A stretch of DNA of 14,462 nucleotides, taken from the NCBI GenBank assembly GCA_964617525.1, contig CAZTWG010000009.1:1-14462 (forward strand), read 5' to 3'. This document shows positions 1 to 14,269 of this stretch, piece after piece; the first letter of the stretch is position 1, and each line of letters begins with the position of its first letter. The notes beneath the pieces are model-generated. The model saw only the letters and a list, made by a program, of their open reading frames with translations, was not told where the DNA came from and did no database searches. A program made the translations under genes and the position numbers. Source of the stretch: an uncultured Gammaproteobacteria bacterium (GTDB lineage: Bacteria > Patescibacteriota > Patescibacteriia > UBA2591 > UBA6264).

Positions 1-105
1 GGTTTATAGATGTTGGAAGTCTACAGTTATGGTTTCTCATTTTTTTTGGTCAATTTTTTGCCAAATGAAAAAAATTGTTCTAAAATGCATTACTAAAGTG
101 CATTT

Positions 106-115
106 GGGGGGGGGG
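106..115. repeat. G10 homopolymer tract
   Basis: Ten consecutive G residues, followed by ctgtcccc. The tract forms codons GGG GGG GGG of a short + frame that is open from the window edge, has in-frame ATGs at 29 and 65, and stops at TGA 128-130. Confidence 0.9.
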
Positions 116-193
116 CTGTCCCCGAATTGAGCCAAGAGTTATCTACAGCTGCAACCAATTGACGAAAGATTTTAATCTGTTATAGTATTTGTA

Positions 194-250
194 AATTCTC
201 GGCCGGAGATTATGTGTACTCATAACTCCAATTTGGCGGAGAATTTTTTT
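194..250 (+). terminator. Rho-independent-type terminator (compound hairpin plus T-run) for a + strand transcript
   Basis: Outer stem aattctc (194-200) pairs with gagaatt (239-245). It encloses an inner hairpin ggag-a-ttatg / cataa-ctcc. A run of 7 T (244-250) follows on the + strand. Confidence 0.45.
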
Positions 251-656
251 ATTCTGGGAACACAGACATCAAATATTTTTTATTAGTTTTTTTATTTTCT
301 TTTATTTGAACGTAGAATAACTCTTTCTCTTTTGATAACCCAGTAAAACGGTGTAAAATCTCGGAATGGCGACAAGGATTCTCAAATGAAATTGGATCAT
401 TTTTTGAGTTTTTAATCAAATCTATAGCACAACCAAAATATTTTAATCTCCTTACTCTTTCTTTGAATGGCTTCTCAAACAGATGTTGCCAAAAAAAATC
501 AAAAAATATTTTTTGTTTATTGAAATAAGCTGATTTTATATATGGTCTACGTTTAGTTTTTGATTTTATTTGTTTAAATAAATCGTTTGCGCTTTTTCTA
601 ACCTCAGAATAACTAGTTCCAGAAAATTTTTTTATTTTTGTTGGATAAGGTATCAT
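249..656 (-). CDS. Hypothetical basic protein, 135 aa, no family recognised
   Basis: Intact ORF in the track with a Lys/Arg-rich composition. It has the same orientation as the upstream operon and is preceded by a GC-rich hairpin. I can assign no motif. Confidence 0.65.
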   Translation of the reverse strand: MIPYPTKIKKFSGTSYSEVRKSANDLFKQIKSKTKRRPYIKSAYFNKQKIFFDFFWQHLFEKPFKERVRRLKYFGCAIDLIKNSKNDPISFENPCRHSEILHRFTGLSKEKELFYVQIKENKKTNKKYLMSVFPE

Positions 657-684
657 AAATTTTTATTTCATGTCCTAATGCTTA

Positions 685-737
685 CCCCGTGGGAGCATAG
701 CGACTTACCTCGCCGGCATGCACAAGGCTTTACGGGG
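685..737 (-). other. GC-rich three-helix hairpin between the DUF1611 gene and the 135-aa gene
   Basis: Three nested stems: ccccgt (685-690)/acgggg (732-737), gcat (695-698)/atgc (718-721), and gcga (700-703)/tcgc (710-713) with loop cttacc. It overlaps the last codons of the 730.. CDS and is much more GC-rich than its surroundings. Confidence 0.4.
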
Positions 738-1833
738 TTCCCATGAATAAGTTCGTCCAGTCTTTTGGATAGCGGATTTGGTCTGTAGTCGGTAGCCCTG
801 TTTTTTCTTCTATATCTATTATTGCCCTTTTTGCTTCTTTGTCTGTCATTCCGCTTGTATTTAGAGCAATGGCTACTACTTTAGTGTTTAAAAATGAAGG
901 GATAATGGTTTTTTCCGCAAGATCAATTACAGTTTTTATGTCTGGAACCGGCAACAACGAACATCCTGTAATGCGTTTTCTTAATGGCCTATGGACTAAA
1001 ACTAAATGCGTTGGACATGCTCCGTGAATTAGTGCTATTGCTGTTGTAGAAAAAGCAGGATGAGACAAAGACCCTTGTCCTTCTATAAAATATATATCTG
1101 GATTTTTTTCTTTTTCTTTTTCTAAAATCATTTTTTCAACAGCCCCAGCCATAAAATCTCCTTCGCATTTATCAACGCTAATACCCCAGCCTTCAATCAT
1201 GATACTTGTTTGCCCAGTTGGGATTATACAAGTCTTATGTTTTTTGCTAGCCATTTTTGCTAATTCATAAGTTGTTGTTAATTTCCCAATTGCAGCATCT
1301 GTCCCTATTGTTAACACGATAGGTTTTTTTATCTTATATGTTTTACAGCTTGCGATTGGCAATTTTGTTGGTGGTATACGTGTTTCCCATATTTTACGAG
1401 AATTTTTCTTAGCTGCTTCAAGTATTTTCGGGTGCAAAGAAAGTGGCGTATGCATACCACTTACTAAATCAAAATCATTTTCCAAAGCCCAAGCCAAATC
1501 ATCAATAAAATTTTTAGGCATTTCGCCTCCCTTGGGAGCAATGCCTATCATTAATATACTTGCTGAAGTTTTAACCTTGGCCTCTTTGATTGTTTTGAAT
1601 ATTGGAATTTTTTTATTAGTATCTTTTAGTATTTTGGAAGTATATGTTTCTTCGCAAAAACTATCTACTATACCTACAATATCATATTCCGCGTATCGTA
1701 AAATCCCATCAGCCGTTTTTGGCCTACTGGGCATTGTTTTGCGAGATTCTAAGCCAAAAGAGTTTCCTGTGTAGATAAGGATTTTTTTGTTTTTTAAATC
1801 AATATGTTCATTGGCTAATGCATTGATATCCAT
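730..1833 (-). CDS. DUF1611 family protein (DgcN-like, P-loop-like GTDxxxGKxTT motif)
   Basis: The motif LTIGTDAAIGKLTTTYEL matches the GTDxxxGK(x)TT signature I recall for DUF1611, and the length is about 367 aa. The track start at 1869 is a TTG. The ATG at 1833 (MDINALANE...) is preferred and overlaps the mraY stop by 19 nt. Confidence 0.75.
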   Translation of the reverse strand: MDINALANEHIDLKNKKILIYTGNSFGLESRKTMPSRPKTADGILRYAEYDIVGIVDSFCEETYTSKILKDTNKKIPIFKTIKEAKVKTSASILMIGIAPKGGEMPKNFIDDLAWALENDFDLVSGMHTPLSLHPKILEAAKKNSRKIWETRIPPTKLPIASCKTYKIKKPIVLTIGTDAAIGKLTTTYELAKMASKKHKTCIIPTGQTSIMIEGWGISVDKCEGDFMAGAVEKMILEKEKEKNPDIYFIEGQGSLSHPAFSTTAIALIHGACPTHLVLVHRPLRKRITGCSLLPVPDIKTVIDLAEKTIIPSFLNTKVVAIALNTSGMTDKEAKRAIIDIEEKTGLPTTDQIRYPKDWTNLFMGTP

Positions 1834-2942
1834 AGACCTAAAAACATCATAAATAAATTGATAATCCAAAAACGCATTACTATTTTTTCCTCACTCCACC
1901 CCAAACATTCTAAATGATGATGCAGGGGGGCCATTTTGAATAAGCGTTTGCCCAGGATATGACGCCAGAATATTTGTAGAATCACAGAGATGGTCTCTGC
2001 AAAAAATATAAAACCAAAAAATGGGGTAATCAAAAGCCTATTTTGGGCAATAGCTGTCACGGCAAATAGAGCCCCCATGCTAAGAGAACCCACATCTCCC
2101 ATTTGAAAACGAGCTGGTTTAATATTGAAATAAATATAGGCGATTAGTGACCCAATAACACTAGCATTTAAAATGGCAAGGTAAGAATTATTTTGCAAAA
2201 GGCTGACGATAGCCAACCCGCAAAAGGCTGACAATAAAACGCCACCAGAAAGTCCATCTAGTCCGTCGGAAATATTTACGGCGTTAGCAAAGAACATCAC
2301 AGTAAAAATGACTATTGGTATCATCCAATATCCTAAATAAATTTCTCCGCTAAATGGTACCCAAATATAGAGCCATTGATTTCCTAACTTAAATACTATC
2401 CACCAAGCAGTGATAACTCCTGTCAAAAATTGAAGAACTATTTTTTCGTGAGGCAAAACGCCACGCGTAGGGTGAGAACTTAGAATACGAAAAGTATTTT
2501 TAAATAAAGTCCAGGGTAATGCAAATATTAACCAAAGGCGATAAGCTTTATTTTTGTGGCAGTGAATTAATTTTAAGGTTAACTTTAAAGATCTGCTTTT
2601 TCTTTTTTTCCCAAAAACATTTAAAATATCATCTATTCCTCCAAGCAATGCAGATAAACACATTACTCCTATAGGGACATAAGTGAATTTTTGCTCAAAA
2701 TTGAAGAGTAGTGTTACTATAAGAATTGTGATTATTATCAACAAACCTCCCATAATCGGCGTGCCCGTTTTGTTGGCACGTTGGTTGTTTGCTTTTAGCG
2801 ATGGGTCTAACTCCATTCTTCTCTGGATTTTTAACTTATAAAGCAAATGAATGATTAATGGAGCTAATACAAAAGCTATTAAACAAGAAAAAATAATAAA
2901 AAACAGAATAGTTGTTAATAAGCTTTGATAAAAAAGGTCCAT
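1815..2942 (-). CDS. mraY: Phospho-N-acetylmuramoyl-pentapeptide transferase MraY
   Basis: Hallmark motifs are present: KTGTPIMGG, GGIDD, NAVNISDGLDGLSGG, MGDVGSLSMGA and KMAPLHHHLE. The protein is polytopic and hydrophobic. Confidence 0.95.
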   Translation of the reverse strand: MDLFYQSLLTTILFFIIFSCLIAFVLAPLIIHLLYKLKIQRRMELDPSLKANNQRANKTGTPIMGGLLIIITILIVTLLFNFEQKFTYVPIGVMCLSALLGGIDDILNVFGKKRKSRSLKLTLKLIHCHKNKAYRLWLIFALPWTLFKNTFRILSSHPTRGVLPHEKIVLQFLTGVITAWWIVFKLGNQWLYIWVPFSGEIYLGYWMIPIVIFTVMFFANAVNISDGLDGLSGGVLLSAFCGLAIVSLLQNNSYLAILNASVIGSLIAYIYFNIKPARFQMGDVGSLSMGALFAVTAIAQNRLLITPFFGFIFFAETISVILQIFWRHILGKRLFKMAPLHHHLECLGWSEEKIVMRFWIINLFMMFLGLWISMH

Positions 2943-2945
2943 GTC

Positions 2946-3644
2946 TTAAAATTTTAAACGTCGAATAACTGTTTTCTCTTTTTTTATTTCTTTTCGCAAA
3001 TCTTCAAGAGAAATTTTTATTTCTTGTACCCCTGGACCACTATATCCTATTTTAGTTGGTCTAGGAGCATGTATAAGCGTTATATTTTGAACAACATTGT
3101 TTTTAATTTCTACACTACTCACCAAAAGGATATGTCTTGAATTATTGCGAATTACCATATCGCCAGGAAGGATTTTATTTAATTCTTTAATTTCCTGGCT
3201 ATTTTTATTGTTAGCTAATACTTTAACGCTGATATTTTCTATTGGTCGAAGTAAAGATATTAAATAACGAAAAGGGTTTTTCCAAAAAAAGACGATATGA
3301 ATTCTAGGGATAATATTTATTTGTTTTTTTTCTTTGTACTCTGATTTTAAGATGTATACCGCTAAAGCTGAACAATCTATCCCTAGATGGTGCTTGGTCA
3401 AAAGTTCATATAATTCTTTTTTTGATATTTTTTTTATATCAATATTTTCGCGCTGAGCAATTAGTTCTACTTCTTCGATAATCTCTTTTGCTGTTCCCTT
3501 CCCCAAAAACACGCGCAAACCAGCTTTAGTTTGAATGCGATTGATAAAATAGGGGCAGGCAATAGTTTTATTCCCAACTTCCATTTTAAAGTAAGAGTTA
3601 ATAGTTTGCTGAGCTGGAATTGATAAAGAAATTGTTTGGTTCAT
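2946..3644 (-). CDS. Hypothetical cytoplasmic protein with NlpC/P60-like Cys...His arrangement (GIDCSALAVYIL ... PGDMV..SRHILLV ... LIHA)
   Basis: Intact 232-aa ORF with 3-nt gaps to both neighbours and no signal peptide. The DCS motif, followed by PGD and a His-containing strand, resembles papain-fold amidases. The family assignment is tentative. Confidence 0.6.
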   Translation of the reverse strand: MNQTISLSIPAQQTINSYFKMEVGNKTIACPYFINRIQTKAGLRVFLGKGTAKEIIEEVELIAQRENIDIKKISKKELYELLTKHHLGIDCSALAVYILKSEYKEKKQINIIPRIHIVFFWKNPFRYLISLLRPIENISVKVLANNKNSQEIKELNKILPGDMVIRNNSRHILLVSSVEIKNNVVQNITLIHAPRPTKIGYSGPGVQEIKISLEDLRKEIKKEKTVIRRLKF

Positions 3645-3647
3645 ATT

Positions 3648-4853
3648 TTATCTACCTAATATTTTTATAATTTTTTGAGCATCTAAATTCCACTGATTGT
3701 GTTTTTTGATAAACCCATCTTTTTCCTTTCGGATAGAACAAATAATGTCATTGTGTTCTATAATGGTTGTTTCTGCTTCTTGTTTGTCGCAAGTCCAGTT
3801 TTGTTTTGGGTTAGAGAGCAGTTTTTTTAACTCCACGCGATTTTGCCCATTTTTTTTTCTTACTAAGATTTGCGCGCCTTGGCTTATCTCCTGCATTTTT
3901 GGATTATTGGTTGGTAGCGGGATGTCCAATAAAGCTGCAAAATGAGCTGTCATGATGGTTAACCCATTTCCTTGTTTTTGTTGGAAGATTGTTTCTATGC
4001 TTGCTGAAGCTGGCTGGCGAGCATTAATCTCAATCACAAACCAATTTTCTCCTGAACGGATAAAATCAATGCCGAACAGACCTTTCCATCCGTCTTTAAG
4101 CATTGCATTTCCTACCCTTTTTGTAATTTTTTTTATACTTTCTATGTCTTTCTTTGAAAGATTTTTTTTAGCATATGACCAATCATTGCCAATGGTCGCA
4201 AAAGGTAGATCGGTAAACTCTTTAAGCCCAGTTATTTGATAACTTGGATTTCCTAATAATATGCATCTTCCCCAAATGCAAACATTAAGTGTAAATGTTT
4301 GTCCTTCAATTAATTTTGAAAGTCGTAGAGGACGTTGAGGAAATTTCTTTTTTAATTTTTCCCAATCTTGCTTATCTTTAATTATTTGTGTTCCTTTCCC
4401 ACTATGGCTATGATTAAATTGACATATAAATGGTTTGCCTATTTTTTTTTCTAATTCTGAAAAGGAAATAGTTTTGGGAGTTTTGATAGCAATAGAAGGT
4501 AAGTATTCTGGAATGATTTTTTTCAACCATTGATACTGGCTTATTTTATTCTCATATTTTTCCGCTAAATGAAAATCAGGATTTAATAATACGACTCCCT
4601 TTTTTTTACTTGTTCTTTGTATTTTAGAATTGTTTTTAAAAACGATTATCATCCCCTTTGGAATATCTGTTGTTGCAATAATTTCAGCAGTATCTTTTAA
4701 CGGAATGGTTGTAATTATTTTATAATTTATTAATAGTTTTTCTATCCCTAGCGCTCGCTGTTTGTTGCGAGTGATGTATAAAAGAGGTTTGTTCTCAATT
4801 CTCTTGTTAATTTTATTAATGATTTGTTGATCTGTAATCATTTTATTTGACAA
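3648..4853 (-). CDS. ATP-grasp domain ligase, substrate unknown
   Basis: The C-terminal motif GLFGIDFIRSGENWFVIEINARQPAS is the typical ATP-grasp G.FG.DF...EIN.R signature. An upstream segment PFICQFNHSHSGKGTQII looks like a phosphate-binding loop. The start is TTG at 4853, with an alternative ATG at 4841. Confidence 0.8.
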   Translation of the reverse strand: MSNKMITDQQIINKINKRIENKPLLYITRNKQRALGIEKLLINYKIITTIPLKDTAEIIATTDIPKGMIIVFKNNSKIQRTSKKKGVVLLNPDFHLAEKYENKISQYQWLKKIIPEYLPSIAIKTPKTISFSELEKKIGKPFICQFNHSHSGKGTQIIKDKQDWEKLKKKFPQRPLRLSKLIEGQTFTLNVCIWGRCILLGNPSYQITGLKEFTDLPFATIGNDWSYAKKNLSKKDIESIKKITKRVGNAMLKDGWKGLFGIDFIRSGENWFVIEINARQPASASIETIFQQKQGNGLTIMTAHFAALLDIPLPTNNPKMQEISQGAQILVRKKNGQNRVELKKLLSNPKQNWTCDKQEAETTIIEHNDIICSIRKEKDGFIKKHNQWNLDAQKIIKILGR

Positions 4854-4872
4854 TTTTTAGTATGTAATAAAG

Positions 4873-4943
4873 TGGACCTAGGCAGAATCGAACTGCCATT
4901 TCTACGTTGCAAACGTAGTGTTCTACCATTAAACCATAGGCCC
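4873..4943 (-). tRNA. tRNA-Ala (anticodon UGC)
   Basis: The reverse complement GGGCCTATGGTTTAATGGTAGAACACTACGTTTGCAACGTAGAAATGGCAGTTCGATTCTGCCTAGGTCCA folds as a cloverleaf. The anticodon loop is TTTGCAA. It has the G3:U70 Ala identity pair, discriminator A, T-loop TTCGATT, and no encoded CCA. Confidence 0.9.
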
Positions 4944-4949
4944 GTATTA

Positions 4950-5189
4950 TTATGTAAATAGTTTTGCTACCCCTCCCATAATATCTTGCCAAATATTGCT
5001 GATTAAAAAAAGCCCTGCCATAATTACTGCTACTCCTATTAGTTTATAAAATAAATGGCTTCCCCCTTCATACTGAAGATGTTTTTCAGCCCAAGCGCTT
5101 CTTCCGAAAAATCTAAAAACTTTTTCTGATTTCCAAACAATCATGAATCCAACGGCAGTAATTAATATTCCGATAAATACTCTTAGCAT
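4950..5189 (-). CDS. Small membrane protein, 79 aa, two predicted hydrophobic helices
   Basis: Intact ORF with hydrophobic segments VFIGILITAVGFMIVW and LIGVAVIMAGLFLISNIW. It ends 6 nt upstream of tRNA-Ala. Confidence 0.6.
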   Translation of the reverse strand: MLRVFIGILITAVGFMIVWKSEKVFRFFGRSAWAEKHLQYEGGSHLFYKLIGVAVIMAGLFLISNIWQDIMGGVAKLFT

Positions 5190-5613
5190 ATTAGTTTTTT
5201 ATTTTTGTTTATTAAAATTAGAATCTCCCAGCTGAAGTAAATTTTATCATATTTTAATTCTCTGCCCTTTTTATTAAAAGTAGCCTTATAATATATACCA
5301 GAAGACTGTTTTGCCTGATTTAATAAACCAATGTCTCGCATTTCCGCAAAAACTATATCTATATCTATGCCACGCCCGCATTACTCTAAATAATTTATCT
5401 CGTTCCGGTATGCCTTGCATTTATTTTATTTCTGCTTACTTGTGTATCTTTGGCATTCTCAATAGTTACCGCCTGGCGGAAAATTTCTCGGATTGAATAT
5501 TTCTATATCTACTCATTTTTTAATTTCTTTAATTACTTGTTCTTTATTCATATTTCTATACTAATGCAATCAATCATCTTGTATGGTAAATTCCCTAAAA
5601 GATATTTCGAGCC

Positions 5614-5657
5614 CAAGTGGGCGTAGCAGGATTTGAACCTGCGACATCCACTTTATA
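5614..5657 (-). repeat. Exact extra copy of the tRNA-Ile 3' half (positions 34-73) plus 4-nt trailer
   Basis: 5614-5657 is identical to 5727-5770 (44/44 nt). Identity stops exactly at anticodon position 34 and after trailer CTTG. Confidence 0.9.
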
Positions 5658-5702
5658 TCAACAACTTCTAATATTATACATTATGGTTGTTGTTTGATAT
5701 AT

Positions 5703-5846
5703 CGATAACTACATTATTATAAATTTCAAGTGGGCGTAGCAGGATTTGAACCTGCGACATCCACTTTATAAGAGTGGCGCTCTGACCCCTGAGCTATACG
5801 CCCATATTTACGCCCACTTGAAATTGTAATAAAGAAGAAGTTATCG
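5703..5846. repeat. Long imperfect inverted repeat enclosing the body of the intact tRNA-Ile
   Basis: Three paired segments: 5722-5738 with 5809-5825 (17 bp, perfect), 5714-5719 with 5827-5832 (6 bp), and 5703-5710 with 5839-5846 (8 bp). All share one register and are separated by small internal loops. Confidence 0.8.
5731..5803 (-). tRNA. tRNA-Ile (anticodon UAU)
   Basis: The reverse complement GGGCGTATAGCTCAGGGGTCAGAGCGCCACTCTTATAAAGTGGATGTCGCAGGTTCAAATCCTGCTACGCCCA has a perfect 7-bp acceptor stem. The D stem is GCTC/GAGC, the anticodon stem CCACT/AGTGG, and the anticodon loop CTTATAA. The T arm is GCAGG-TTCAAAT-CCTGC, the discriminator is A, and no CCA is encoded. Confidence 0.9.
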
Positions 5847-5850
5847 CTAC

Positions 5851-5889
5851 AAGAGTGGCGCTCTGACCCCTGAGCTATACGCCCATATT
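5851..5889 (-). repeat. Exact extra copy of the tRNA-Ile 5' half (positions 1-34) plus 5-nt leader
   Basis: 5851-5889 is identical to 5770-5808 (39/39 nt). Identity stops at anticodon position 34 and 5 nt upstream of position 1. Confidence 0.9.
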
Positions 5890-5937
5890 CATTTAGAGGC
5901 TCGGCCTTCAATCTTTTTCAATATCTTGTAGTTTATT

Positions 5938-5965
5938 TATAATAACATTTTAAGACACAATGTCA
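5938..5965 (-). promoter_or_regulatory. Sigma70-like promoter candidate for the tRNA-Ile region
   Basis: On the minus strand: TTGACA (5965-5960), a 16-nt spacer ending in TGT, then TATATA (5943-5938), which gives an extended -10. It lies about 45 nt upstream of the outer 5' half copy. The AT-rich background raises the chance of a false match. Confidence 0.4.
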
Positions 5966-5977
5966 AAATATGTTTTT

Positions 5978-6006
5978 CTTGTTAAAATATATAATTTTGT
6001 TATAAT
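5978..6006 (+). promoter_or_regulatory. Sigma70-like promoter candidate for ruvB
   Basis: TTGTTA (5978-5983), a 17-nt spacer, then a perfect TATAAT (6001-6006). It lies about 57 nt upstream of the ruvB ATG at 6063. Confidence 0.4.
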
Positions 6007-6062
6007 AATATAAACATTAAGTTAAAGATAAATAATTTAGTTATTTTTTGATTTTAATCCTT

Positions 6063-7076
6063 ATGTCTAAAGCATCGCCAGAGAATATTATTAGTCAGGA
6101 AGAATTGCCAGAAGACAGTGGGGTTGATTTAACTTTACGTCCCAAGACGTTAGAAGAATTTATTGGACAGAAAAAATTAAAAGAAGGGCTTAAGATATTT
6201 ATCCAGGCAGCTAAGCAGAGGGGAGAACCGTTAGAGCATATATTATTTCAAGGTTCTCACGGTTTGGGCAAAACTACGCTTTCGCATATTATAGCTCACG
6301 AGATGGGGGTTAATCTTCAAATTACGTCTGGGCCAGCATTAGAAAGGGCTGGTGACTTGGCTGCTATTCTGACTAGCTTGCCAGAAGGTGGTATTTTGTT
6401 TATTGACGAAATACATCGTCTTAATAGACATATTGAAGAGATTCTTTATCCAGCTATGGAAGAGTGTGCTTTGGATATAATAGTAGGTAAGGGACCTAGC
6501 GCTAAGACCTTACGTTTAGATATTCCTCGTTTCACTTTAGTGGGCGCTACCACTAAACCAAGTTTAATATCTCCTCCGTTACGTGACCGTTTTGGGATGA
6601 CCTATCGTTTAAATTTTTATGAAAATTCAGAAATAGAAGATATTATTAAACGTTCATCTAGGATTTTAAAAATAAATTTAGAGCCCGAAACAGTTTCTGA
6701 GCTAGCTAGGCGTTCTCGCTTTACCCCTCGGATAGCTAATCGTTTGTTAAAAAGAACTAGAGATTTCGCTCAAGTAAGGGGAGAAAAGGTTGTTAAGGTT
6801 GCAACCCTTCTTAGTCTTTTAGATGTTTTGGGTATTGATAATTCTGGGCTTAGTTTTGTAGATCGCGAGATTCTTTCTTCTTTAATTAAAAAATTTGCTG
6901 GCGGGCCAGTAGGACTTAAAACTTTAGCAGCAAGCACTGGCGAAGACTTGGCAAGTATAGAGGAAATATATGAGCCTTACTTAATAAGGCTTGGCTTTCT
7001 AAATAGAACTCCTCGCGGGAGAACAGCGACAAAATTAGCATACCAGCATTTAAAAGATAATACTTTTACGGATTAA
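6063..7076 (+). CDS. ruvB: Holliday junction branch migration ATPase RuvB
   Basis: The N-terminal motif LRPKTLEEFIGQ and Walker A GSHGLGKTT are present. Walker B is ILFIDEIHRL and sensor 1 is LVGATT. The C-terminal winged helix ends PYLIRLGFLNRTPRGR. The ATG at 6063 is preferred over the TTG at 6048. Confidence 0.95.
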   Translation: MSKASPENIISQEELPEDSGVDLTLRPKTLEEFIGQKKLKEGLKIFIQAAKQRGEPLEHILFQGSHGLGKTTLSHIIAHEMGVNLQITSGPALERAGDLAAILTSLPEGGILFIDEIHRLNRHIEEILYPAMEECALDIIVGKGPSAKTLRLDIPRFTLVGATTKPSLISPPLRDRFGMTYRLNFYENSEIEDIIKRSSRILKINLEPETVSELARRSRFTPRIANRLLKRTRDFAQVRGEKVVKVATLLSLLDVLGIDNSGLSFVDREILSSLIKKFAGGPVGLKTLAASTGEDLASIEEIYEPYLIRLGFLNRTPRGRTATKLAYQHLKDNTFTD

Positions 7077-7087
7077 CATATTTTTTT

Positions 7088-8290
7088 ATGAAAACTATTA
7101 GCAAAAAACGAGCCATAACTCTAATCTTTGTGTTTTCTTTTCTTGGTTTTTTGATTGGAGTTTTTTTGAAGAACAATTTTATTACTTCTCCAAAAATAAT
7201 TATTTCTAACCAATCAGCAAGCAGTATCAACGAACAATTTGATGTTTCTTTATTCAAAAAAGTCTGGAATATGATTGAAGAAGATTATGTTGTGCAACCA
7301 ACTTCAGGGAAAGATTTGTTTTATGGTTCTTTAAAAGGGTTGGTAGAAGGTTTAAATGACCCTTATTCTGTTTTTTTAGAGCCAGAATCAGCTAAAAGAT
7401 TTTTAGATGATGTTTCTGGTAGTTTTGAGGGAGTGGGGATAGAGATTGGCGTCAAAGAAAATACATTAACAGTTATAGCTCCGTTGGATTATACTCCTGC
7501 TTTCCGAGCTGGTTTACGTTCAGGGGATAAAATTTATGCTATTGACGGCAAGAGTACTTTGGGTATGGGATTAGATGAAGCCGCACATTTGATTAGGGGC
7601 GAAAAGGGGACTAAAGTTGTTCTAACCATCTTAAGAAAATCAGAGGGAAAAACTAAAGATGTGGAGATTGTTCGCGATACTATTGATATTAAGTCAGTTT
7701 CTTGGGAGTTAAAAGGAGAGAATGATAAAATTGCTTATATTAAAATAACTCATTTTTCTGATGATACTTGGGGAGATTTTCAAAACATCGCTCAAGTTGC
7801 TTTAGCCTCTAACCCAAATGGTTTAATTTTGGATTTACGTAATAATCCTGGTGGATATATGGACACGGCAGTAAATATCGCTGGCTATTGGTTGGGGAAT
7901 GATGTAGTAGTTATTGCTAGAGACTCTAATAATAAAGATAAGGAATATAAATCGTCTGGTCCTAGATATTTTGACAATTTACCAACTATTATTTTAGTGA
8001 ATCAAGGATCTGCCTCTGCCTCGGAGATTTTAGCTGGAGCTATGCAGGATTATAAAAAGGCAACAGTTTTAGGCACTCAAACATTTGGCAAAGGCTCTGT
8101 TCAGGAATTAAAAAATTTAGCTGATGGCTCAGCGCTTAAACTTACTATTGCTAATTGGTATACACCGTTAAATCGTTCTTTTAATGAAGAAGGAATTACC
8201 CCAGACGTGGAGGTGGAAATAACAGAAGAGGATTATTTAGAAAATAAAGATCCCCAGTTGATTAGAGCTTTGGAAATTTTGAGTAAATAA
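7088..8290 (+). CDS. ctpA: S41 family carboxyl-terminal processing peptidase with N-terminal membrane anchor and PDZ domain
   Basis: The sequence shows GVGIEIG and a PDZ segment PAFRAGLRSGDKIYAIDG. It also shows LILDLRNNPGG, the catalytic Ser region VNQGSASASEILAGA, and GTQTFGKGSVQ. Confidence 0.9.
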   Translation: MKTISKKRAITLIFVFSFLGFLIGVFLKNNFITSPKIIISNQSASSINEQFDVSLFKKVWNMIEEDYVVQPTSGKDLFYGSLKGLVEGLNDPYSVFLEPESAKRFLDDVSGSFEGVGIEIGVKENTLTVIAPLDYTPAFRAGLRSGDKIYAIDGKSTLGMGLDEAAHLIRGEKGTKVVLTILRKSEGKTKDVEIVRDTIDIKSVSWELKGENDKIAYIKITHFSDDTWGDFQNIAQVALASNPNGLILDLRNNPGGYMDTAVNIAGYWLGNDVVVIARDSNNKDKEYKSSGPRYFDNLPTIILVNQGSASASEILAGAMQDYKKATVLGTQTFGKGSVQELKNLADGSALKLTIANWYTPLNRSFNEEGITPDVEVEITEEDYLENKDPQLIRALEILSK

Positions 8291-8292
8291 AA

Positions 8293-8319
8293 TCCCATGT
8301 TAATATTATTAACGTGGGA
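8293..8319. terminator. Bidirectional hairpin terminator between convergent ctpA and rpmA
   Basis: tcccatgttaata / tattaacgtggga forms a roughly 12-bp stem with one G:U pair. On the minus strand TTTTATTT follows; on the + strand a weaker ttatttgttt follows. Confidence 0.55.
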
Positions 8320-8346
8320 CGATTATTTGTTTGAATTTAAGAATAT

Positions 8347-8646
8347 TTATTTTTTCTTTTTTGCCAAAGAAGCATCCTTGACATTAACGTATTTTTTTAA
8401 ACGTAAACGACTGTCAAATCGGACAGCTTTTTTTTTGCTAAAGCAAACTACTCCATTCTTTAAGGAATAAAGTGTGTCATCTCTTCCTCGACGTACTCCT
8501 TCTCCTGGATGGAATCTAGTTCCTCTTTGCCTGACAATAATTGTTCCGGGTTTCACCCTTTCACCACCGAAAGCCTTAACTCCAAGTCTTTGTCCTTGAG
8601 AGTCACGGCCTAGAGATGTTGAACCACCTGCTTTTTTATGTGACAT
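8347..8646 (-). CDS. rpmA: 50S ribosomal protein L27
   Basis: [24 protein letters not shown]...[15 protein letters not shown] is the canonical L27 sequence. A Lys-rich tail follows. Confidence 0.95.
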
Positions 8647-8891
8647 ATTTACAATTTATATACACAACAAAATTAATACTGTTGCTTATCTTATTAATAT
8701 TTAATTATTCTATCATCTTTATAATTTATGTCAATTATTTATTTTTTAATTGTTTAACGTTATTGAGTATAGCGAACAATAAGGTTCTGCGAAAGTAGCT
8801 AGAATATTCTTGTGATATACTATCAATTTTTACTTTTATTGACAAAGAGTCCAATGAATTTAATTTTTAGGTGATTTAAAGATAAAAAATA

Positions 8892-9260
8892 ATGATTAAA
8901 AGGATTTTTCAAAATATTTTTGATATAGACTTTTGGAAAGAATCTAAAATTCGTTTTCCGATAATAGCTAGTTTAATTCTAAATATTTTTATTTGGCTTT
9001 ATATTATTTTTAATTTTTTGGGGGTTAAGGGTTTTGTTCCATTGCATTATAATATTTTTTCTGGCGTTGACACAATTGGTTCTTGGTCAAGATTATTTAT
9101 TCCTGTTTTATTTGGGTTTTTAATTTTAATCGTTAATTCAAGTTTGGCCTTTCATTTCTATTCTAGAGGGGAAAGAAGAATTGTTTTTGTTTTATTGAAT
9201 AGTTGTCTAACGTCTCATATAATTTTATTATTAGCTATTTTATTAATTGTTGGTTTTTAA
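8892..9260 (+). CDS. Hypothetical integral membrane protein, 122 aa
   Basis: Intact ORF with three or four hydrophobic segments. It ends 2 nt before the ATG of the SEDS gene. Confidence 0.55.
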   Translation: MIKRIFQNIFDIDFWKESKIRFPIIASLILNIFIWLYIIFNFLGVKGFVPLHYNIFSGVDTIGSWSRLFIPVLFGFLILIVNSSLAFHFYSRGERRIVFVLLNSCLTSHIILLLAILLIVGF

Positions 9261-9262
9261 CT

Positions 9263-10381
9263 ATGCCAAAGGAACATTTTAAAACTCACGCTCCTGATTA
9301 TTCTCTAATTTTTGGTTTTATTGTTTTGATTGTTTCGGGTCTTATAATGTTAACCTCCGCTAGTTATTTTATTGGTTGTCATAAGTTGAATAATTGTTAT
9401 TTTTATTTAAAACACCAGTTATTATATGGAATGCTTCCAGGATTAATTATTCTTTTTCTTTTGTCACATTTTAACTATCACAAACTTAAAAAAATAGCCG
9501 TACCTGTTCTAGTTGTGATAATTTTTCTTTTAATTTTAATCCTGCTCCCTCAATTTGGGGTTACTAGGGGTCAGTCGCAACGTTGGTTAAAGATAGGTGG
9601 TATTACTTTTCAGCCATCAGAGGCTATTAAATTAGCTTTTTTGCTCTTTTTGTCTGCATGGTTGTCTAAAAGACAGACAGATGTTAAGAGTTTCGGCAGG
9701 GTATTTATTCCCTTTGTTGCTTTGTTGACAATTGTTTCTCTTTTGATTATTCCTCAAAAAGATTTAAGCACATTAATAATAATAATTTCTTCTGCTTTTT
9801 CTATCTATTTTATGGCTGGAGCTCCTCTTTTGTATTGCGGTTATCTTTCTGCGGGTTTAACCTTAGTCGTGGCGCTTGCTATTAAATATCAGCCATATCG
9901 CTGGGAACGTTTTTTAGTTTTTTCTAAATCTTCAGATATAGATATTTTGGGAATTGGTTATCACGTAAATCAAGCACTTTCAGCTATTGTTTCTGGTGGA
10001 ATTTTTGGCAAAGGGCTAGGGCATTCTGCTCAAAAGATTTCTCGTCTTCCAGAAGTTATTAGTGATTCTATTTTTGCAGTTACAGCCGAAGAGTTGGGAT
10101 TTATTCTTACAGCATTTTTAGTAATTGTTTATTTTTTTGTTGCTTATCGTATTTTTAAGATTGCTTTTTTGTCTAGCGATAAATTTGGTAGAATTTTGGC
10201 GGGAGGGATTGGGGTTTGGTTTGTTCTGCAATCTTCTATTAATATGGGTGGCATGCTAGGGCTTATTCCTATGACGGGGGTACCTCTACCGTTTATGAGC
10301 TATGGGAGTTCTAATCTTATTGTTTTTTTAGCAGCTTTTGGAATTCTTATTAACATTTCAAAACAGACTAAAATTTGTTAA
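9263..10381 (+). CDS. SEDS family peptidoglycan glycosyltransferase (FtsW/RodA/SpoVE)
   Basis: The SEDS signature RWLKIGGITFQPSE is present, along with the motifs LPEVISDSIFAVTAEELG and PLPFMSYGSS, and about 10 TM segments. The ATG at 9263 (MPKEHF) is preferred over the track start at 9203, which overlaps the upstream gene. Confidence 0.9.
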   Translation: MPKEHFKTHAPDYSLIFGFIVLIVSGLIMLTSASYFIGCHKLNNCYFYLKHQLLYGMLPGLIILFLLSHFNYHKLKKIAVPVLVVIIFLLILILLPQFGVTRGQSQRWLKIGGITFQPSEAIKLAFLLFLSAWLSKRQTDVKSFGRVFIPFVALLTIVSLLIIPQKDLSTLIIIISSAFSIYFMAGAPLLYCGYLSAGLTLVVALAIKYQPYRWERFLVFSKSSDIDILGIGYHVNQALSAIVSGGIFGKGLGHSAQKISRLPEVISDSIFAVTAEELGFILTAFLVIVYFFVAYRIFKIAFLSSDKFGRILAGGIGVWFVLQSSINMGGMLGLIPMTGVPLPFMSYGSSNLIVFLAAFGILINISKQTKIC

Positions 10382-10412
10382 TATTTAGTTATACTATATT
10401 ATAGTTTTCGTT

Positions 10413-11543
10413 ATGAATGATAAAAGAATTAATTTAATTGACAGGGTCTATACTCCGCATCGTTCTGAGGAGGCTTATGCCAATCGCAATATCAAAAGAA
10501 AAAAGATTTGGCGGAATTTTAAGATACTATTTTTTCTTTTAATTTTTTTGAGTATTTTTTTCTCACAAGCTATTGTTTCTAAAAATAGCTTTTTAGGTAA
10601 TTTTGGAAAACTTTCTTTTTGGGAGGGAGTAGCAAAAATGGCTATCGGTAAAGATAAAATACTCAAAGGAGAATTGTCAGACAGGGTTAATATTTTAATT
10701 TTGGGTATGGGTGGGGCCCAACATGAAGGCCCTTATTTAACAGATTCTATTATTTTAGCCAGTATAAAACCTTCATCTCATCAAGTTGCTCTTTTGTCAA
10801 TCCCTCGTGATCTTTACGTGCCTATTCCTAAATATGGCTGGCAAAGAATTAACTTTGCAAACGCTTTGGGCGTAGCTCGCTCTAAAGATGGAGGGGAGTT
10901 AGCTAGCGAAGTGGTTAGTGATGTTTTGGATGTCCCCATCCATTATTGGGTTCGTGCGGATTTTCAAATTTTTAAAAAAATAATTGACGAATTAGGGGGG
11001 TTAGAAGTAGATGTGGATAAAAGTTTTGTGGACCATCAATTCCCTGGACTTAATTATCAATCTAGAACGGTTAGCTTTGAAGCTGGTTTACAGACAATGG
11101 ATGGGGATAGGGCCTTGCAATTTGTGCGCTCTAGACACGGAGGCAATGGAGAGAATTCTGACTTTGCTCGCAGCAAAAGACAGCAAAAAATTTTAATTGC
11201 TATTGCTAATAAAGTTTTAGACCAGAATATTTTAGCTAATCCTCAAAGAACGTTAAGTTTTTACAATATTCTTGAGAATAATATTAGTAGTAATTTAGAT
11301 GTTAGCCAAATGATTAGGCTGGCACGATTAGCCAGCTATACACCATTTGAAAATATTATTACCAAAGTTATTGAAATAGGTCCTGAAGGATTATTGGAAC
11401 AAACAATTATGGAAAATGGAGCCTATGTTTTAAAAACTAAGACTGGAGATTTTAAAGAATTAGCAAAATTAGCAAAAAATATTTTTTCAGTAGAAACTAT
11501 TCCAGAAGCCGAAAACTCACTTGGGGATCTAAACCCAAAATAG
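10413..11543 (+). CDS. LytR-CpsA-Psr (LCP) family cell-envelope phosphotransferase
   Basis: An N-terminal TM segment is followed by NILILGMGG, TDSIILASI, SIPRDLYV, GGLEVDV, and DGDRALQFVRSRH. Confidence 0.9.
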   Translation: MNDKRINLIDRVYTPHRSEEAYANRNIKRKKIWRNFKILFFLLIFLSIFFSQAIVSKNSFLGNFGKLSFWEGVAKMAIGKDKILKGELSDRVNILILGMGGAQHEGPYLTDSIILASIKPSSHQVALLSIPRDLYVPIPKYGWQRINFANALGVARSKDGGELASEVVSDVLDVPIHYWVRADFQIFKKIIDELGGLEVDVDKSFVDHQFPGLNYQSRTVSFEAGLQTMDGDRALQFVRSRHGGNGENSDFARSKRQQKILIAIANKVLDQNILANPQRTLSFYNILENNISSNLDVSQMIRLARLASYTPFENIITKVIEIGPEGLLEQTIMENGAYVLKTKTGDFKELAKLAKNIFSVETIPEAENSLGDLNPK

Positions 11544-11558
11544 ACTAATATTTTATTT

Positions 11559-12896
11559 ATGGTCAAAATTGCCTTAGTAGGACAAGCTAATGTTGGTAAG
11601 TCAACCTTATTTAATCGCTTAATATCTGAATCTAAAGCGATTACTTCTGATATTCCTGGGACTACGCGTGATAGAAATTATGGAGTTTGTGAATGGCGAG
11701 GAGAAGAAATTACTTTCATTGACACGGGTGGGTTGATTGAAGGGCAGGATATTTTTAAAAAAGAAGTAATTAAACATATCAATATTGCTATCGAAGAGTC
11801 TGATTTTATTTTCTTTATATTGGAAATCAAGTCACCAGATATTCCAATTTCTAATTTAGAAAGAGAAATAAGCCATTTGATTAAAAAATCAAAAAAACCT
11901 TGTTTTTTGATATTAAACAAGGCAGATAATCCAGCTAAAAGGGAGTGGGGCTTAAGCCCATATTGGTTGAAAATGGGATTAGGAGAACCCTTTTGCGTTT
12001 CCGCTCTTAATGGTAGTGGGGTTGGTGATTTATTAGATTATGTAACCGAACAAATAAAAGAAAAATCTTTGACATCGATAGATGACAATCAAGAGAAGTT
12101 GCCTTTGATTAAAGTAGCTATTATTGGCAAACCTAATGTGGGAAAATCAACTTTACTTAATTCTCTTTTGGGAGAAGAAAAAGTTATTGTTTCCTCCGTG
12201 TCTCACACTACGCGTGGACCACAGGACAGCTTATTAAGCGTAGGAGAAAATGATTTTCTTTTGATTGATACCGCTGGGATTCGACGTAAGGCAAGAATTA
12301 AAGCGGTCATTGAGAAAATTGGGGTTCGTCGTTCTCTAGCGATCATTGAACGCGCAGATATCATTTTAATGGTTATTGATATCGCTTCCTCTTTAAGCCA
12401 TCAGGATAAGGCTTTGGTTGATTTAATTATTAAAAAAGATAAAGGATTGATATTTGTTATCAATAAATGTGATTTGGTCCCTAGGCAAAAATTTAAAAGA
12501 GAAGACTTTGATCTTAATTTAGGTTCCTGGGCTCCAGCTATTTTTGTTTCTGCCAAGGAAGGAAAAAATGTTCAAGAGATATTTAGCTTGATTGTTAGAG
12601 TGCAAAAAAATTGTTTTCGCAGAATAACTGAACTAAAGTTAAATGAATTTTTGAGATCAACGGTGAAGAGGAAAAAACTTCCTTCTGATATTTGGGCAAA
12701 GGTTCATGCCATACAAACTGATGTTTGTCCTCCAGATTTTTTATTCTTAGCTCCTTCAATTGTTCTTAGACGGAAGTCTATTAATCCAGCTCAAATTAAT
12801 ATTATAGAGAAAGCGCTTAGAAGAAGATGGGATTTTGTTGGGACTCCTATTAAGATTACGCTAACAAATAAGTCGGGTAATCGGGTCCACGGGTAA
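11559..12896 (+). CDS. der: Ribosome-associated GTPase Der (EngA), tandem GTPase domains plus KH-like C-terminus
   Basis: There are two G domains. The first has GQANVGKSTLFNRL, DTGG and NKAD. The second has GKPNVGKSTLLNSL, DTAGIRRK and NKCD. Confidence 0.95.
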   Translation: MVKIALVGQANVGKSTLFNRLISESKAITSDIPGTTRDRNYGVCEWRGEEITFIDTGGLIEGQDIFKKEVIKHINIAIEESDFIFFILEIKSPDIPISNLEREISHLIKKSKKPCFLILNKADNPAKREWGLSPYWLKMGLGEPFCVSALNGSGVGDLLDYVTEQIKEKSLTSIDDNQEKLPLIKVAIIGKPNVGKSTLLNSLLGEEKVIVSSVSHTTRGPQDSLLSVGENDFLLIDTAGIRRKARIKAVIEKIGVRRSLAIIERADIILMVIDIASSLSHQDKALVDLIIKKDKGLIFVINKCDLVPRQKFKREDFDLNLGSWAPAIFVSAKEGKNVQEIFSLIVRVQKNCFRRITELKLNEFLRSTVKRKKLPSDIWAKVHAIQTDVCPPDFLFLAPSIVLRRKSINPAQINIIEKALRRRWDFVGTPIKITLTNKSGNRVHG

Positions 12897-12955
12897 TTGG
12901 GCAATCAAGCCCCCTAATTAACAAAGGCTCCAAGCGCCTAGTTAACCAATGTTAT

Positions 12956-13510: not shown

Positions 13511-13515
13511 AAAAT

Positions 13516-13541
13516 GTGGCTCTTGTTTTAACAAGAGCCAC
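13516..13541. terminator. Hairpin terminator between convergent pth and the lipoprotein gene
   Basis: gtggctcttgtt / aacaagagccac gives a perfect stem of about 10-11 bp. On the minus strand ATTTTTT follows, so it suits the lipoprotein gene best. Confidence 0.6.
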
Positions 13542-13550
13542 TAAAGATTG

Positions 13551-13913: not shown

Positions 13914-13951
13914 TTTTTGTTCCTCCTTTGAAAGAATTTTTTCTTCACTTT

Positions 13952-14053: not shown

Positions 14054-14269
14054 GAAAGCTAAAGAAAACCGTAAGAACCGTTCTTTGTTAGCGCTTATAT
14101 TCAAAGTATTACAGATTTTGAGAATTTGTCAATGGGAGTTTTGATATTCTGCTCCAATCTTCCAATGTCTTTACCTGTGCATAACTTTTTTTAAAAATGT
14201 GTTATACTTTTAATACAACAAAATAATATTTTAATATTTTATAAATAAATAATATTTAAAAGTTATCTT

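Follow-up and report, generated by a model that had tools for sequence, protein, structure and literature searches.

The window analysed here is a stretch of 14,462 nucleotides (nt) (assembly GCA_964617525.1, contig CAZTWG010000009.1, positions 1 to 14,462 of the forward strand). It is a chromosome segment from an uncultured, ultrasmall bacterium of the Patescibacteria or Candidate Phyla Radiation (CPR) type with about 33% G+C, and the nearest public sequences to its RuvB protein belong to metagenome-assembled genomes (MAGs) of Patescibacteria. On its minus strand lies an array of tRNA-Ile(UAU) sequences, in which one intact gene is placed between a copy of its own 5' half and a copy of its own 3' half. 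A preliminary description of the window had read this locus as a tRNA gene whose anticodon loop is split by about 193 nt, these carrying a whole copy of the gene. Comparison with related loci supports that reading, notably through halves of a different allele in locus L112 and double nesting in loci L245 and L221 (related loci and contigs are given L numbers throughout). The array contains the following features, listed from its upstream end.

5939-5966, minus strand: sigma-70-like promoter TTGACA-16-TATTAT, TG-extended, 11/12 match, upstream of the outer 5' half.
5848-5889, minus strand: outer 5' half, consisting of the leader AATAT (5889-5885) and tRNA nt 1-37 (5884-5848), identical at 41/42 positions to 5767-5808.
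5839-5847, minus strand: left insert end IR-L, GCGATAACT, complementary to 5702-5710.
5809-5825, minus strand: leader arm AATTTCAAGT plus decoy GGGCGTA, an exact 17-nt inverted copy of tRNA nt 66-73 plus trailer.
5731-5803, minus strand: intact inner tRNA-Ile(UAU), scored at 76.1 bits by the Rfam tRNA model and called by ARAGORN as tRNA-Ile(tat) at 5730-5803.
5702-5730, minus strand: trailer, in which CTTGAAATT pairs with the leader arm and which ends in IR-R, AGTTATCGA (5702-5710).
5698-5701, minus strand: second, internal TATA core, flanked by IR-R and hairpin B.
5658-5697, minus strand: hairpin B, TCAAACAAC...loop...GTTGTTGA, the right insert end.
5614-5657, minus strand: outer 3' half, tRNA nt 34-73 plus CTTG, identical at 44/44 positions to 5727-5770.

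The inner gene is presumed to be the functional one of the array. Both ARAGORN and Rfam confirm the intact tRNA-Ile(UAU) of the preliminary description, and in the intron mode of ARAGORN it is the sole call on the array. It is referred to here as "E-type", having the acceptor strand GGGCGTA, the anticodon arm CCACT-CTTATAA-AGTGG and no encoded CCA, and its 73 nt were found without variation across strains. The flanking copies first reported as 39/39 upstream and 44/44 downstream are likewise real; the upstream direct repeat extends to 42 nt at 41/42, of which 39 nt are exact, and it carries an A35G change at 5850. A chance origin of exact repeats of 39-44 nt in 14.5 kb is excluded (about 4^-39 per position pair). 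Joining the two outer halves recreates a tRNA, as had been claimed, since ARAGORN calls tRNA-Ile(UAU) on the joined sequence; the same call was obtained for the joined outer halves of L112, L245, L231, and L237. The promoter-like site assigned to the region upstream of the outer 5' half also holds up (5966-5939, 11/12), and its block TTGACAT...TATAAA is kept in all relatives aligned. A promoter scan gave no internal promoter for the inner tRNA within the spacer s1. With no other good promoter-like site found, and the site at 5966-5939 kept in relatives, it is plausible that the whole array is read from there, inner tRNA included; the co-transcription of all pieces put forward earlier is thus retained as plausible.

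Two other statements of the preliminary description required correction. The first was that both partial copies break at T34 of the anticodon. In sister strains (L081-84, L090, L203) the outer 5' copy runs to CTTATA|G and so reaches A37, with the junction sequence CTTATA|GCGAT. Considering that the window itself has A35G, the shared T34 breakpoint is therefore strain-specific. The two partial copies in fact overlap by TATA (nt 34-37), the centre of a palindrome, TTATAA, which is formed by this anticodon loop (C-U-UAU-A-A) alone. The second statement was that the two spacers, s1 and s2, share no similarity. Spacer s1 opens with IR-L, GCGATAACT, which forms a 9-nt inverted repeat with AGTTATCGA (IR-R) in s2, and the 3' end of s1, AATTTCAAGTGGGCGTA, is a 17/17 inverted match to the tRNA 3' end and trailer (5809-5825 versus 5722-5738).

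The earlier observation that neither an integrase nor element-sized DNA lies between the repeats was upheld. Only 69 nt separate the 44-nt repeats, and the insert holds no credible coding open reading frame (ORF), merely overlapping frames of at most 61 aa that pass through the tRNA copies. Searches of the ORFs of the window against Pfam and NCBIfam gave no integrase, transposase, recombinase or endonuclease. Neither s1 and s2 nor the adjoining 425-nt flank matched a ribozyme, an intron or any other known family in Rfam, and for a group I catalytic core the Rfam matches, at the gathering threshold and at E-values up to 5, were to tRNA only.

Closer relatives (80-92% RuvB identity) were fetched by way of their RuvB proteins. 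In distant relatives (L001, L002, L005, and L116; 65-70% RuvB identity) there is one plain tRNA-Ile(UAU) between ruvB and the membrane-protein gene. The clade possesses two types of tRNA-Ile(UAU), the E-type and a host type with the acceptor strand GGGCATG and the anticodon arm CTTGA-CTTATAA-TCAAG. The preliminary description had proposed comparing related loci for an uninterrupted site, and such a site was found in L108-111 (92% RuvB identity), where a clean single host-type gene occupies the syntenic position; closely related host-type genes are present at the syntenic site in L116-119 and L002. In L112 and L113 (80% RuvB identity), s1, the E-tRNA and s2 are located between a host-type 5' half and a host-type 3' half, with the junctions ...GACTTATA|GCGATAAC... 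and ...GTTGTTGA|TATAATCAAG... in L112. As the block lies inside host-type halves, the E-tRNA and its arms are an insert in the anticodon loop of the host gene.

L245 and L221 are doubly nested, with the arrangement host5'-[s1a-E5'-[s1b-E-s2b]-E3'-s2a]-host3'. All four junctions are identical in these two loci, CTTATA|GCGATAAC on the left and GTTGTTGA|TATAA on the right, and the left junction CTTATA|GCGATAAC is the same in the independent events of L112, L245, and L221. In L245 each layer has a matching leader and trailer pair of its own; in L221 the outer s2 is truncated. The window corresponds to the inner two layers of an L245-like doll, of which L245 keeps the host-type halves and the outer s1 and s2. 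Beyond its outer host 3' half L245 runs into an intact AlbA_2/HATPase_c_4 gene. The remnant of that gene in the window links the two loci and implies a loss of the outer layers from the window by deletion. In a tree of RuvB proteins the uninvaded L108 is sister to the lineage of the window and lies within a clade of invaded lineages. Moreover, the host halves of L245 equal the functional tRNA of L108, save for a D-loop hairpin insertion, and those of L112 equal the intact host gene of L115. The position of L108 and the identity of these halves with intact genes suggest that the insertions were recent and repeated and not one ancient event.

The same architecture was found in other CPR lineages. 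A metagenome scan with a 23-mer of the anticodon arm yielded 48 loci from many CPR lineages, and besides the E family at least four unrelated inserts (L210, L231/L238, L237, and L208) occupy the same position. Three of these are laid out as follows.

L210 insert: X-TATA-TCTTGCTCAT-tRNA-...ATGAGCAAGA-TATA-...
L231/L238 insert: ...CTTAT-GACAGAAATTG-tRNA-CTCAATTTCTGTC-AT-hairpin-ATAAA...
L237 insert: ...CTTA-CCCGCCTGCC...tRNA...GGCGGGCAGG-TAAAG...

The arm sequences of the unrelated inserts share nothing; common to all is the order of a leader arm, an entire tRNA-Ile(UAU) and a trailer arm complementary to the first. L208 and L238 have, in addition, a clear extra small 3' hairpin like that of the E family. 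In L237 the outer tRNA still looks intact and its CCA is encoded. Outer and inner tRNAs are different alleles in L112, L245, L221, L210, L237, L231, and L238. When annotated tRNAs were masked and the flanks were searched with an nhmmer profile of tRNA-Ile, partial copies on the same strand flanked 27 of 67 distinct tRNA-Ile(UAU) loci. The upstream copies in this set are all 5' fragments that end at profile position 22-37, mostly 33-37, and the downstream copies are all 3' fragments that start at position 26-33, all but one of them at 32-33. A cruder census by exact self-match, in a sample biased by the fetching of loci via tRNA-Ile and ruvB, gave a partial copy upstream of tRNA-Ile(UAU) in 27/81 cases and downstream in 24/81, compared to 0/40 for tRNA-Ala(UGC).

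Arrangements which recall this one were also seen at other tRNA genes. In L240 (6180-6450, minus strand) a copy of nt 8-33 of tRNA-Cys(GCA) and a 22-nt spacer lie before the intact gene, and a decayed 3' half lies about 90 nt beyond it; the break is at nt 33/34 and the layout is nested-like. In L228 (1177-1710) the series starts with a copy of tRNA-Gly(GCC) that is cut short in the T-loop, continues with an ORF of about 80 aa for a GIY-YIG protein, a candidate homing endonuclease, and ends with an intact tRNA-Gly whose start is overlapped by the 3' end of the ORF, in an "interrupt and replace" logic. L202, L223, L205, and L207 have only 3'-end or 3'-half fragments, 100-200 nt downstream of tRNA-Ile, which resemble classical integrase attachment (att) scars. 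The same GC-rich sequence, TTCGACTCG(C)TTCGCTCGCTCA, comes after the fragment in both L100 and L202.

The insert of the E family is organised around paired segments. Leader arm and trailer form a 10-bp helix in which, among eight aligned E-family elements, 97.5% of cells are paired and compensatory double changes occur at 5 of the 10 pairs. None of 500 shuffles reached the observed covariation score and percentage of pairing, and slid controls collapsed. The outer 10-bp helix between IR-L and IR-R has 93.8% of cells paired, is nearly invariant and contains a conserved G.A mismatch. Between IR-R and hairpin B, the internal TATA core sits in the block TATCGATATATCAAACAAC, which extends from IR-R through the core to the left side of B and is the most sequence-conserved part of the family. 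Hairpin B adjoins the outer 3' half, and its loop is polymorphic with three haplotypes. As hairpin B is carried by both nested copies in L245 and in L221, it is an integral part of the unit. Folded as RNA by minimum free energy (MFE), the array of the window is predicted to form a long hairpin (z = -6.7 and -7.8), with the leader-arm helix as the main helix, the s1 decoy GGGCGUA paired with the 3' acceptor strand of the tRNA, and hairpin B following.

A further property concerns the two ends of the insert when they are joined. In three unrelated families the joined ends (trailer arm, B and left arm) fold as a single continuous hairpin with z-scores of -7.5 to -9. In L208 this hairpin is a perfect 20 bp, and in the E family it has one bulged A and a G.A mismatch. 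A conserved rule links these sequences, in that a circle, if formed, would have a junction equal to the reverse complement of the internal block of IR-R, core and B-left. That the joined ends fold as one hairpin suggests a circular or single-stranded intermediate recognised by its structure. The leader-trailer helix may serve the processing of the inner pre-tRNA, by analogy with the RNase III stems of rRNA operons; alternatively, it may be part of a DNA site.

The outer halves were found to decay. Within the species, polymorphic positions amount to 3/42 in the outer 5' half, 0/44 in s1, 0/73 in the inner tRNA, and 0/44 in the outer 3' half. In relatives the outer halves show substitutions, hairpin insertions, truncations and degraded acceptor ends, with an invariant inner tRNA. 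This decay identifies the outer halves as remnants of a pseudogene, not as parts of a split tRNA. In several lineages GC-rich hairpins of 20-60 nt have been inserted at one D-loop position of the outer halves, and in L245 also in the T-loop. The repeated halves moreover drive deletions and duplications at the strain level. In L090 the series 5' half, s1 and tRNA is followed directly by the outer flank, without s2 and 3' half, which fits a deletion between the 44-nt repeats, and the 81-nt unit of 5' half and s1 occurs twice in L091-94 and once in L095 of the same species. L100 has the tRNA, s2 and a chimeric 3' half which switches from E-type to host-type in the T-loop. L099, with a RuvB protein identical to that of L100, has a single E-type gene and a different right-hand neighbourhood. 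L115, whose RuvB protein equals that of L112, has an intact host-type gene at the end and an array of 5' fragments before it.

The GC-rich hairpin is an observation in its own right. A hairpin of about 20 nt, CCTGCC[T/C]GCCGGTAGGCAGG, and variants of it, sometimes tandem or longer, occur in dead 5' halves of both tRNA types, and sites in the D-loop or T-loop of outer halves include L091 (about 2271-2290), L112 (about 541-640), L115, L102, and L245. The hairpin is also intergenic in distant CPR genomes (L001, 2861-2881; L024, about 3375-3395), and the arms of the L237 insert resemble it with a tRNA in its loop. It may represent a second, smaller family of mobile hairpins.

We consider it likely that the array is a nested "tRNA-in-tRNA", formed when an ORF-less unit, about 190 nt long, entered an older tRNA-Ile(UAU) at its anticodon loop and replaced it. 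The unit would consist of the left arm s1, a complete tRNA-Ile(UAU), the trailer, the internal TATA and the terminal hairpin, and its insertion point would be the palindrome TTA|TAA at nt 34-37 of the resident gene. The interrupted older copy would have been left as dead outer 5' and 3' remnants, and the inner tRNA would have taken over its function, with the resident promoter ahead of the outer 5' half serving for its transcription. In the window the copy that was interrupted would already have been of the element type, the outermost layers of the doll having since been deleted. Insertion, nesting, junctions that are precise and recur, outer halves in decay, and repeated halves that give rise to deletions and duplications among strains are all seen directly among the loci compared, and a discrete unit with defined ends has entered tRNA-Ile(UAU) more than once, its own cargo included.

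With moderate confidence we infer that insertion is site-specific and catalysed in trans; the unit has no ORF and the window no recombinase. The unit would then be mobilised, now or formerly, by a site-specific enzyme that recognises structure. With low confidence, the substrate could be a circular or single-stranded folded form. In such a form the joined ends would give rise to GTTGTTGA-TATA-GCGATAAC, a duplex core site in which one base is bulged, and would pair with the internal block of IR-R, TATA and B-left into one continuous duplex site. Candidate enzymes would be a tyrosine recombinase of the integron-attC or Xer/CTXphi kind or a rolling-circle enzyme of the HUH class, for which the insertion between A and T and the 3' hairpin would offer an alternative route. 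Homing by break repair at TTA|TAA would be another, and the chimeric half of L100 would fit a co-conversion tract.

tRNA-Ile(UAU) is probably the only AUA-reading tRNA gene of the host. Bacteria without tilS are reported to depend on tRNA-Ile(UAU) for decoding AUA (PMC3575796). The constant orientation and the tRNA cargo of the inserts can be understood as a result of selection, because splitting the probable sole AUA decoder would be survivable only with a co-oriented replacement transcribed from the resident promoter. The inserts which survive would thus be those bringing such a replacement, on which the host would then depend.

Several points weigh against the nested-insertion reading. All data are metagenome assemblies, and the window itself has no host-type halves, so that its nesting history is read from relatives. 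The searches gave no free or circular form of the unit, nor one with an ORF, and Pfam and NCBIfam offer no candidate gene for the mobilising enzyme in the window. Element sequences occur at one chromosomal site in one clade only, their motifs being found nowhere but at the tRNA-Ile locus when the window and 1.8 Mb of fetched loci were scanned, and ordinary homologous recombination of an old insertion could explain much of the distribution. The duplication at the junctions varies by family, being TATA in the E family, AT in L238 and L231, and absent in L237. Finally, the MFE fold sequesters the 3' acceptor strand of the tRNA in the 17-bp leader helix, which is awkward for maturation.

A viral or plasmid-like source of the unit was also considered and rejected. 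Scans of viral contigs for the s2 core, the E anticodon arm and the left junction returned 3, 0, and 78 hits, respectively, and on inspection the 3 and the 78 looked like chance matches, without tRNA or s1-like flanks. A blastn search against phage records gave generic tRNA similarity only.

Among the other explanations, homing by repair of a double-strand break stands up best, even if it is unlikely. Here an endonuclease acting in trans would cut TTA|TAA, and repair from an interrupted allele would copy the insert and co-convert its flanks. The 6 bp of the target form a perfect palindrome that no other anticodon loop has, and the inner tRNA keeps it, which would make recursive nesting possible. 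The E/host chimera in the outer 3' half of L100, with its switch in the conserved T-loop, looks like a co-conversion tract, and the GIY-YIG ORF of L228 lies between a truncated and an intact tRNA-Gly. However, no endonuclease gene was found in or near any tRNA-Ile insert, and the host halves of L112 are purely of host type up to TATA. Homing furthermore neither requires nor explains the conserved two-hairpin architecture and its compensatory changes.

Less probable, with perhaps a slight chance of being correct, is that the halves are scars of two separate classical integrations by an integrase-bearing phage, integrative and conjugative element (ICE) or island. The preliminary description had listed relics of repeated integration and excision among its options, and this stands only loosely, since the same small size and precise ends recur in several independent events. 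Anticodon loops are indeed classical crossover sites of tyrosine integrases, 3' partial copies are the usual att scar, the 3' flank of the tRNA is a variable islet, and plain downstream 3'-end fragments exist at some CPR loci (L202, L223, L205, L207). The inserts between the halves, however, agree in size, content and exact ends in independent and even nested events, which makes random decay of large elements an unlikely source. They hold a complete tRNA and not an att-sized segment, their 5' and 3' fragments always add up to one tRNA, and neither an integrase nor a remnant of one is present in the window or between the repeats.

Local rearrangement without foreign DNA, in which replication slippage or template switching at the near-palindromic anticodon arm would have duplicated the halves and given rise to the inverted spacer, appears very unlikely as the origin of the array. 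In the window the outer halves differ little from the inner gene, s1 repeats the tRNA 3' end and trailer in inverted and partly diverged form, and the strain changes in the loop of hairpin B are clustered in a manner typical of template switching in quasi-palindromes. The allele of the outer halves nevertheless differs from the inner one in the seven loci named above, so that there the inner gene came from elsewhere. The "nested duplication" suggested earlier is for this reason kept as to its nesting, in the form of a nested insertion, and given up as a local duplication. In addition, junctions are identical in separate events, and the middle of s1 is not complementary to the trailer. Local rearrangement could be viable only for secondary events such as the change in copy number of 5' half and s1.

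An even slimmer chance is given to the array as a functional RNA, that is, a split or intron-containing tRNA made from the joined outer halves, or a regulatory precursor that controls maturation of the inner tRNA. The pieces are probably co-transcribed, the predicted transcript fold is very stable (z = -6.7), the leader-trailer helix is kept by compensatory changes, and L237 retains an outer tRNA that looks intact with encoded CCA. Yet outer halves decay or vanish in many lineages and strains, and the outer tRNA would be redundant, having the same anticodon as the inner. In the folds, and on inspection of L237 and L238 as well, the junctions are a continuous helix or three-way junction, without the bulge-helix-bulge (BHB) motif, and no group I intron or ribozyme signal was detected. 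The split-tRNA-like half transcripts once proposed are accordingly not supported, given outer halves that decay beside an invariant inner tRNA and the lack of a BHB.

The last alternative, an assembly artefact from a chimeric walk via a repeated tRNA k-mer, has practically no chance of being right, because, for all the shortness of the repeats (39-44 nt) and the breaks that some short-k assemblies show at them (L086, L087), different assemblers and samples agree, a k of 141 far exceeds the repeat length, strain-specific single-nucleotide polymorphisms lie inside the array, and orthologous versions exist in species at 80-92% RuvB identity. The structure of the locus is real. The same layout is present in at least seven independent assemblies (L081-L085, L203, and L217, from NCBI MAGs, ENA MEGAHIT assemblies with k = 141, and JGI). 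The 79-aa membrane protein that neighbours the array is encoded on 16 public contigs; five spanning contigs from the NCBI MAGs and the ENA MEGAHIT assemblies with k = 141 have the order 5' half, s1, tRNA, s2, and 3' half, with strain-level differences, and two JGI contigs from the metagenome scan, L203 and L217, carry it too. Logan contigs (k = 31) end inside the 3' repeat, as expected for a real repeat. One public ENA contig, L085, begins with an adapter-like sequence at positions 1-35, TAGTCTCGTGGGCTCGGAGATGTGTATAAGAGA. We take this to be a Nextera-type sequencing adapter, and it would be a contamination of the contig end with no biology.

Around the array, the plus strand of the window encodes, besides ruvB, an S41 protease, ftsW, lytR, der, and pth. 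The minus strand carries, apart from the tRNA-Ile array, the 79-aa membrane protein (4950-5189), a tRNA-Ala and cell-envelope genes. Three features border on the array.

6048-7076, plus strand: ruvB.
5896-5908, minus strand: GC hairpin of small size within the 5' leader, some 10 nt ahead of the outermost half; terminator-like on the plus strand.
5190-5613, minus strand: pseudogene of a 474-aa SLFN_AlbA_2/HATPase_c_4 gene, heavily deleted, non-coding, outside the insert.

The position of the leader hairpin is kept in relatives and its sequence changes (GAAGGCCGAGCCTC in the window, AGAGGTTCGACCTCT in L091, GGACACTCGGTGTCC in L245), which suggests a conserved leader structure. The frame-0 remnant in the pseudogene (425 nt) matches the ORF of L245 (BLASTP E = 5e-12 and 6e-9), where the 474-aa gene with SLFN_AlbA_2 and HATPase_c_4 domains is intact at the same place (2121-3545, minus strand). 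A decayed homing-endonuclease or integrase gene at 5190-5613 is ruled out by this identification. In L108, L091, L005, and L002 only about 20-35 nt are found where the window has the pseudogene, so the sequences compared here mark the 3' flank of tRNA-Ile as a variable islet.

Three further details of the window were noted. Gene orientation switches at about 5000-6100, genes to the left being on the minus strand and those to the right on the plus strand, and across the same region the GC skew changes from about -0.26/-0.13 to +0.23, with a cumulative minimum at about 5500-6000; this could reflect simple divergent transcription or a nearby replication origin. The ORF for peptidyl-tRNA hydrolase (12956-13348) has 130 aa, covers Pfam positions 1-131 of 183 and may be truncated or frameshifted. 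The ruvB ORF starts with TTG at 6048 and encodes 342 aa; the public product of 337 aa starts 15 nt downstream (6063), and the 342-aa form is absent from public records.

Interruption of tRNA genes at the anticodon loop by introns, split genes and integration sites is an old question, and a mobile-element cause has long been proposed. Taken further, the loci would point to an undescribed class of ORF-less, hairpin-bounded mobile tRNA genes in Patescibacteria, a proposition to which we give even chances. Such units of about 110-190 nt would insert at the TTATAA centre, kill and replace the resident tRNA-Ile(UAU), re-invade their own cargo to build Russian-doll arrays, and move, by the action of a host enzyme, as a folded intermediate that is circular or single-stranded. 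Other tRNAs may have analogous units of their own. If true, this would be a natural and ongoing route to tRNA genes split at the anticodon loop. The locus and its relatives provide a living bacterial series of uninvaded, singly invaded, doubly and possibly triply nested genes with decaying halves, and because the series lies within closely related populations, the mechanism of insertion and its consequences are testable. If mobile, the units would rank with the smallest known elements that carry cargo. They would then also allow tRNA alleles to be replaced horizontally and would be an unusual case of genetic addiction, in which an element destroys an essential single-copy tRNA gene and becomes its replacement. 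In practical terms, the arrays yield tRNA pseudo-fragments, repeat-induced assembly breaks and possible misannotation in CPR genomes.

Several known systems share individual features with these inserts, the nearest in kind being integrase-borne elements that enter tRNA genes and restore them. Such elements are kilobases long, encode the integrase and duplicate an att-sized segment only, normally the 3' part of the tRNA. Phages, ICEs, islands and tycheposons resemble the unit in having a tRNA target, often the anticodon loop, in restoring the gene with element sequence, in leaving partial tRNA copies as direct repeats, and in stacking by repeated integration at one site. The inserts described here differ in that they measure about 110-190 nt, have no ORF, carry a whole tRNA, leave both halves and nest in their own cargo. 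The window does have a direct repeat of the tRNA 3' segment that bounds the insert (44/44, 5614-5657 = 5727-5770), as an att scar would, but neither an integrase gene or remnant nor element-sized DNA, and its duplication is two-sided, since the 5' half is present too (5848-5889). Tycheposons have been described as integrative elements which target tRNA genes and leave partial-copy scars, and tRNA fragments that arise from integrations have also been described (PMC9897764).

Group I introns and homing genes in tRNA anticodon loops share the site, a possible spread to uninterrupted alleles and co-transcription. Here, by contrast, there is no ribozyme core and no endonuclease ORF, the GIY-YIG ORF being present only at the analogous tRNA-Gly locus L228, and the host gene is replaced by a second gene and not restored by splicing. 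Disrupted tRNAs of archaea are similar in the interruption in or near the anticodon loop, in fragments placed beside a replacement gene and in the mobile cause proposed for them; for the tRNA-Thr disruption of Caldiarchaeum, a 1.8-kb element encoding a recombinase was put forward (PMC3293823). They differ in having BHB introns cut by the splicing endonuclease, whereas the present host is bacterial, the halves decay and the insert is itself a tRNA gene. A BHB-intron model was tried and rejected, as the geometry at the junctions does not fit; no BHB motif is formed, and the outer exons show no sign of purifying selection (3/42 polymorphic positions in the outer 5' half versus 0/73 in the inner tRNA, with hairpin insertions and truncations in relatives).

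Miniature inverted-repeat transposable elements (MITEs) and palindromic mini-elements (Correia, RPE, REP-like) are likewise small, non-coding, hairpin-forming, located within genes and co-transcribed. They are, however, dispersed in many copies, with sequence-conserved terminal inverted repeats (TIRs) and a fixed target-site duplication (TSD); the present unit is found in tRNA-Ile only, and dispersed copies are missing from the window and from the fetched loci. The ends of the E family, GCGATAAC and GTTGTTGA, agree at 5/8 positions as inverted repeats, those of L238 form a perfect one of 6 nt, and L208 has none. Comparing the empty L108 with the filled L112 and L245 gives a TATA duplication in the E family, with boundaries blurred by the palindromic target. 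A simple transposon with TIR and TSD thus fits the E family and fails for L208, which has no TIR, and for L237, which has no duplication.

Rolling-circle elements (IS91, ISCR, Helitrons) have in common with the unit a short specific site, no target duplication, a 3' hairpin, single-strand intermediates and captured genes, and Helitrons insert between A and T. Against this, no HUH transposase was found, the terminal motifs differ and the scale is far smaller here. The sites used by integron attC cassettes and by CTXphi attP(+) with host XerCD are alike in relying on structure over sequence, with an imperfect hairpin, extrahelical bases, a recombination point on one stem strand, no enzyme in the mobile unit and a fixed orientation. 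As in an attC cassette, the left end of the element pairs with an internal site just upstream of the 3' hairpin, and an imperfect hairpin with extrahelical bases over the joined ends was found in three families. The unit described here carries a tRNA and enters an anticodon loop instead of attI or dif, and the parallel is one of resemblance only. A match to the attC consensus RYYYAAC/GTTRRRY was looked for by inspection and rejected, the ends and junctions of the E family having only AAC...GTT triplets, and no IntI is encoded in the window. In the literature, the coverage of which was limited so that absence is no proof of novelty, no description of tRNA-bearing mini-insertions nested in tRNA genes of bacteria or CPR was found; the nearest accounts are those of att scars, archaeal disrupted tRNAs and tycheposons.

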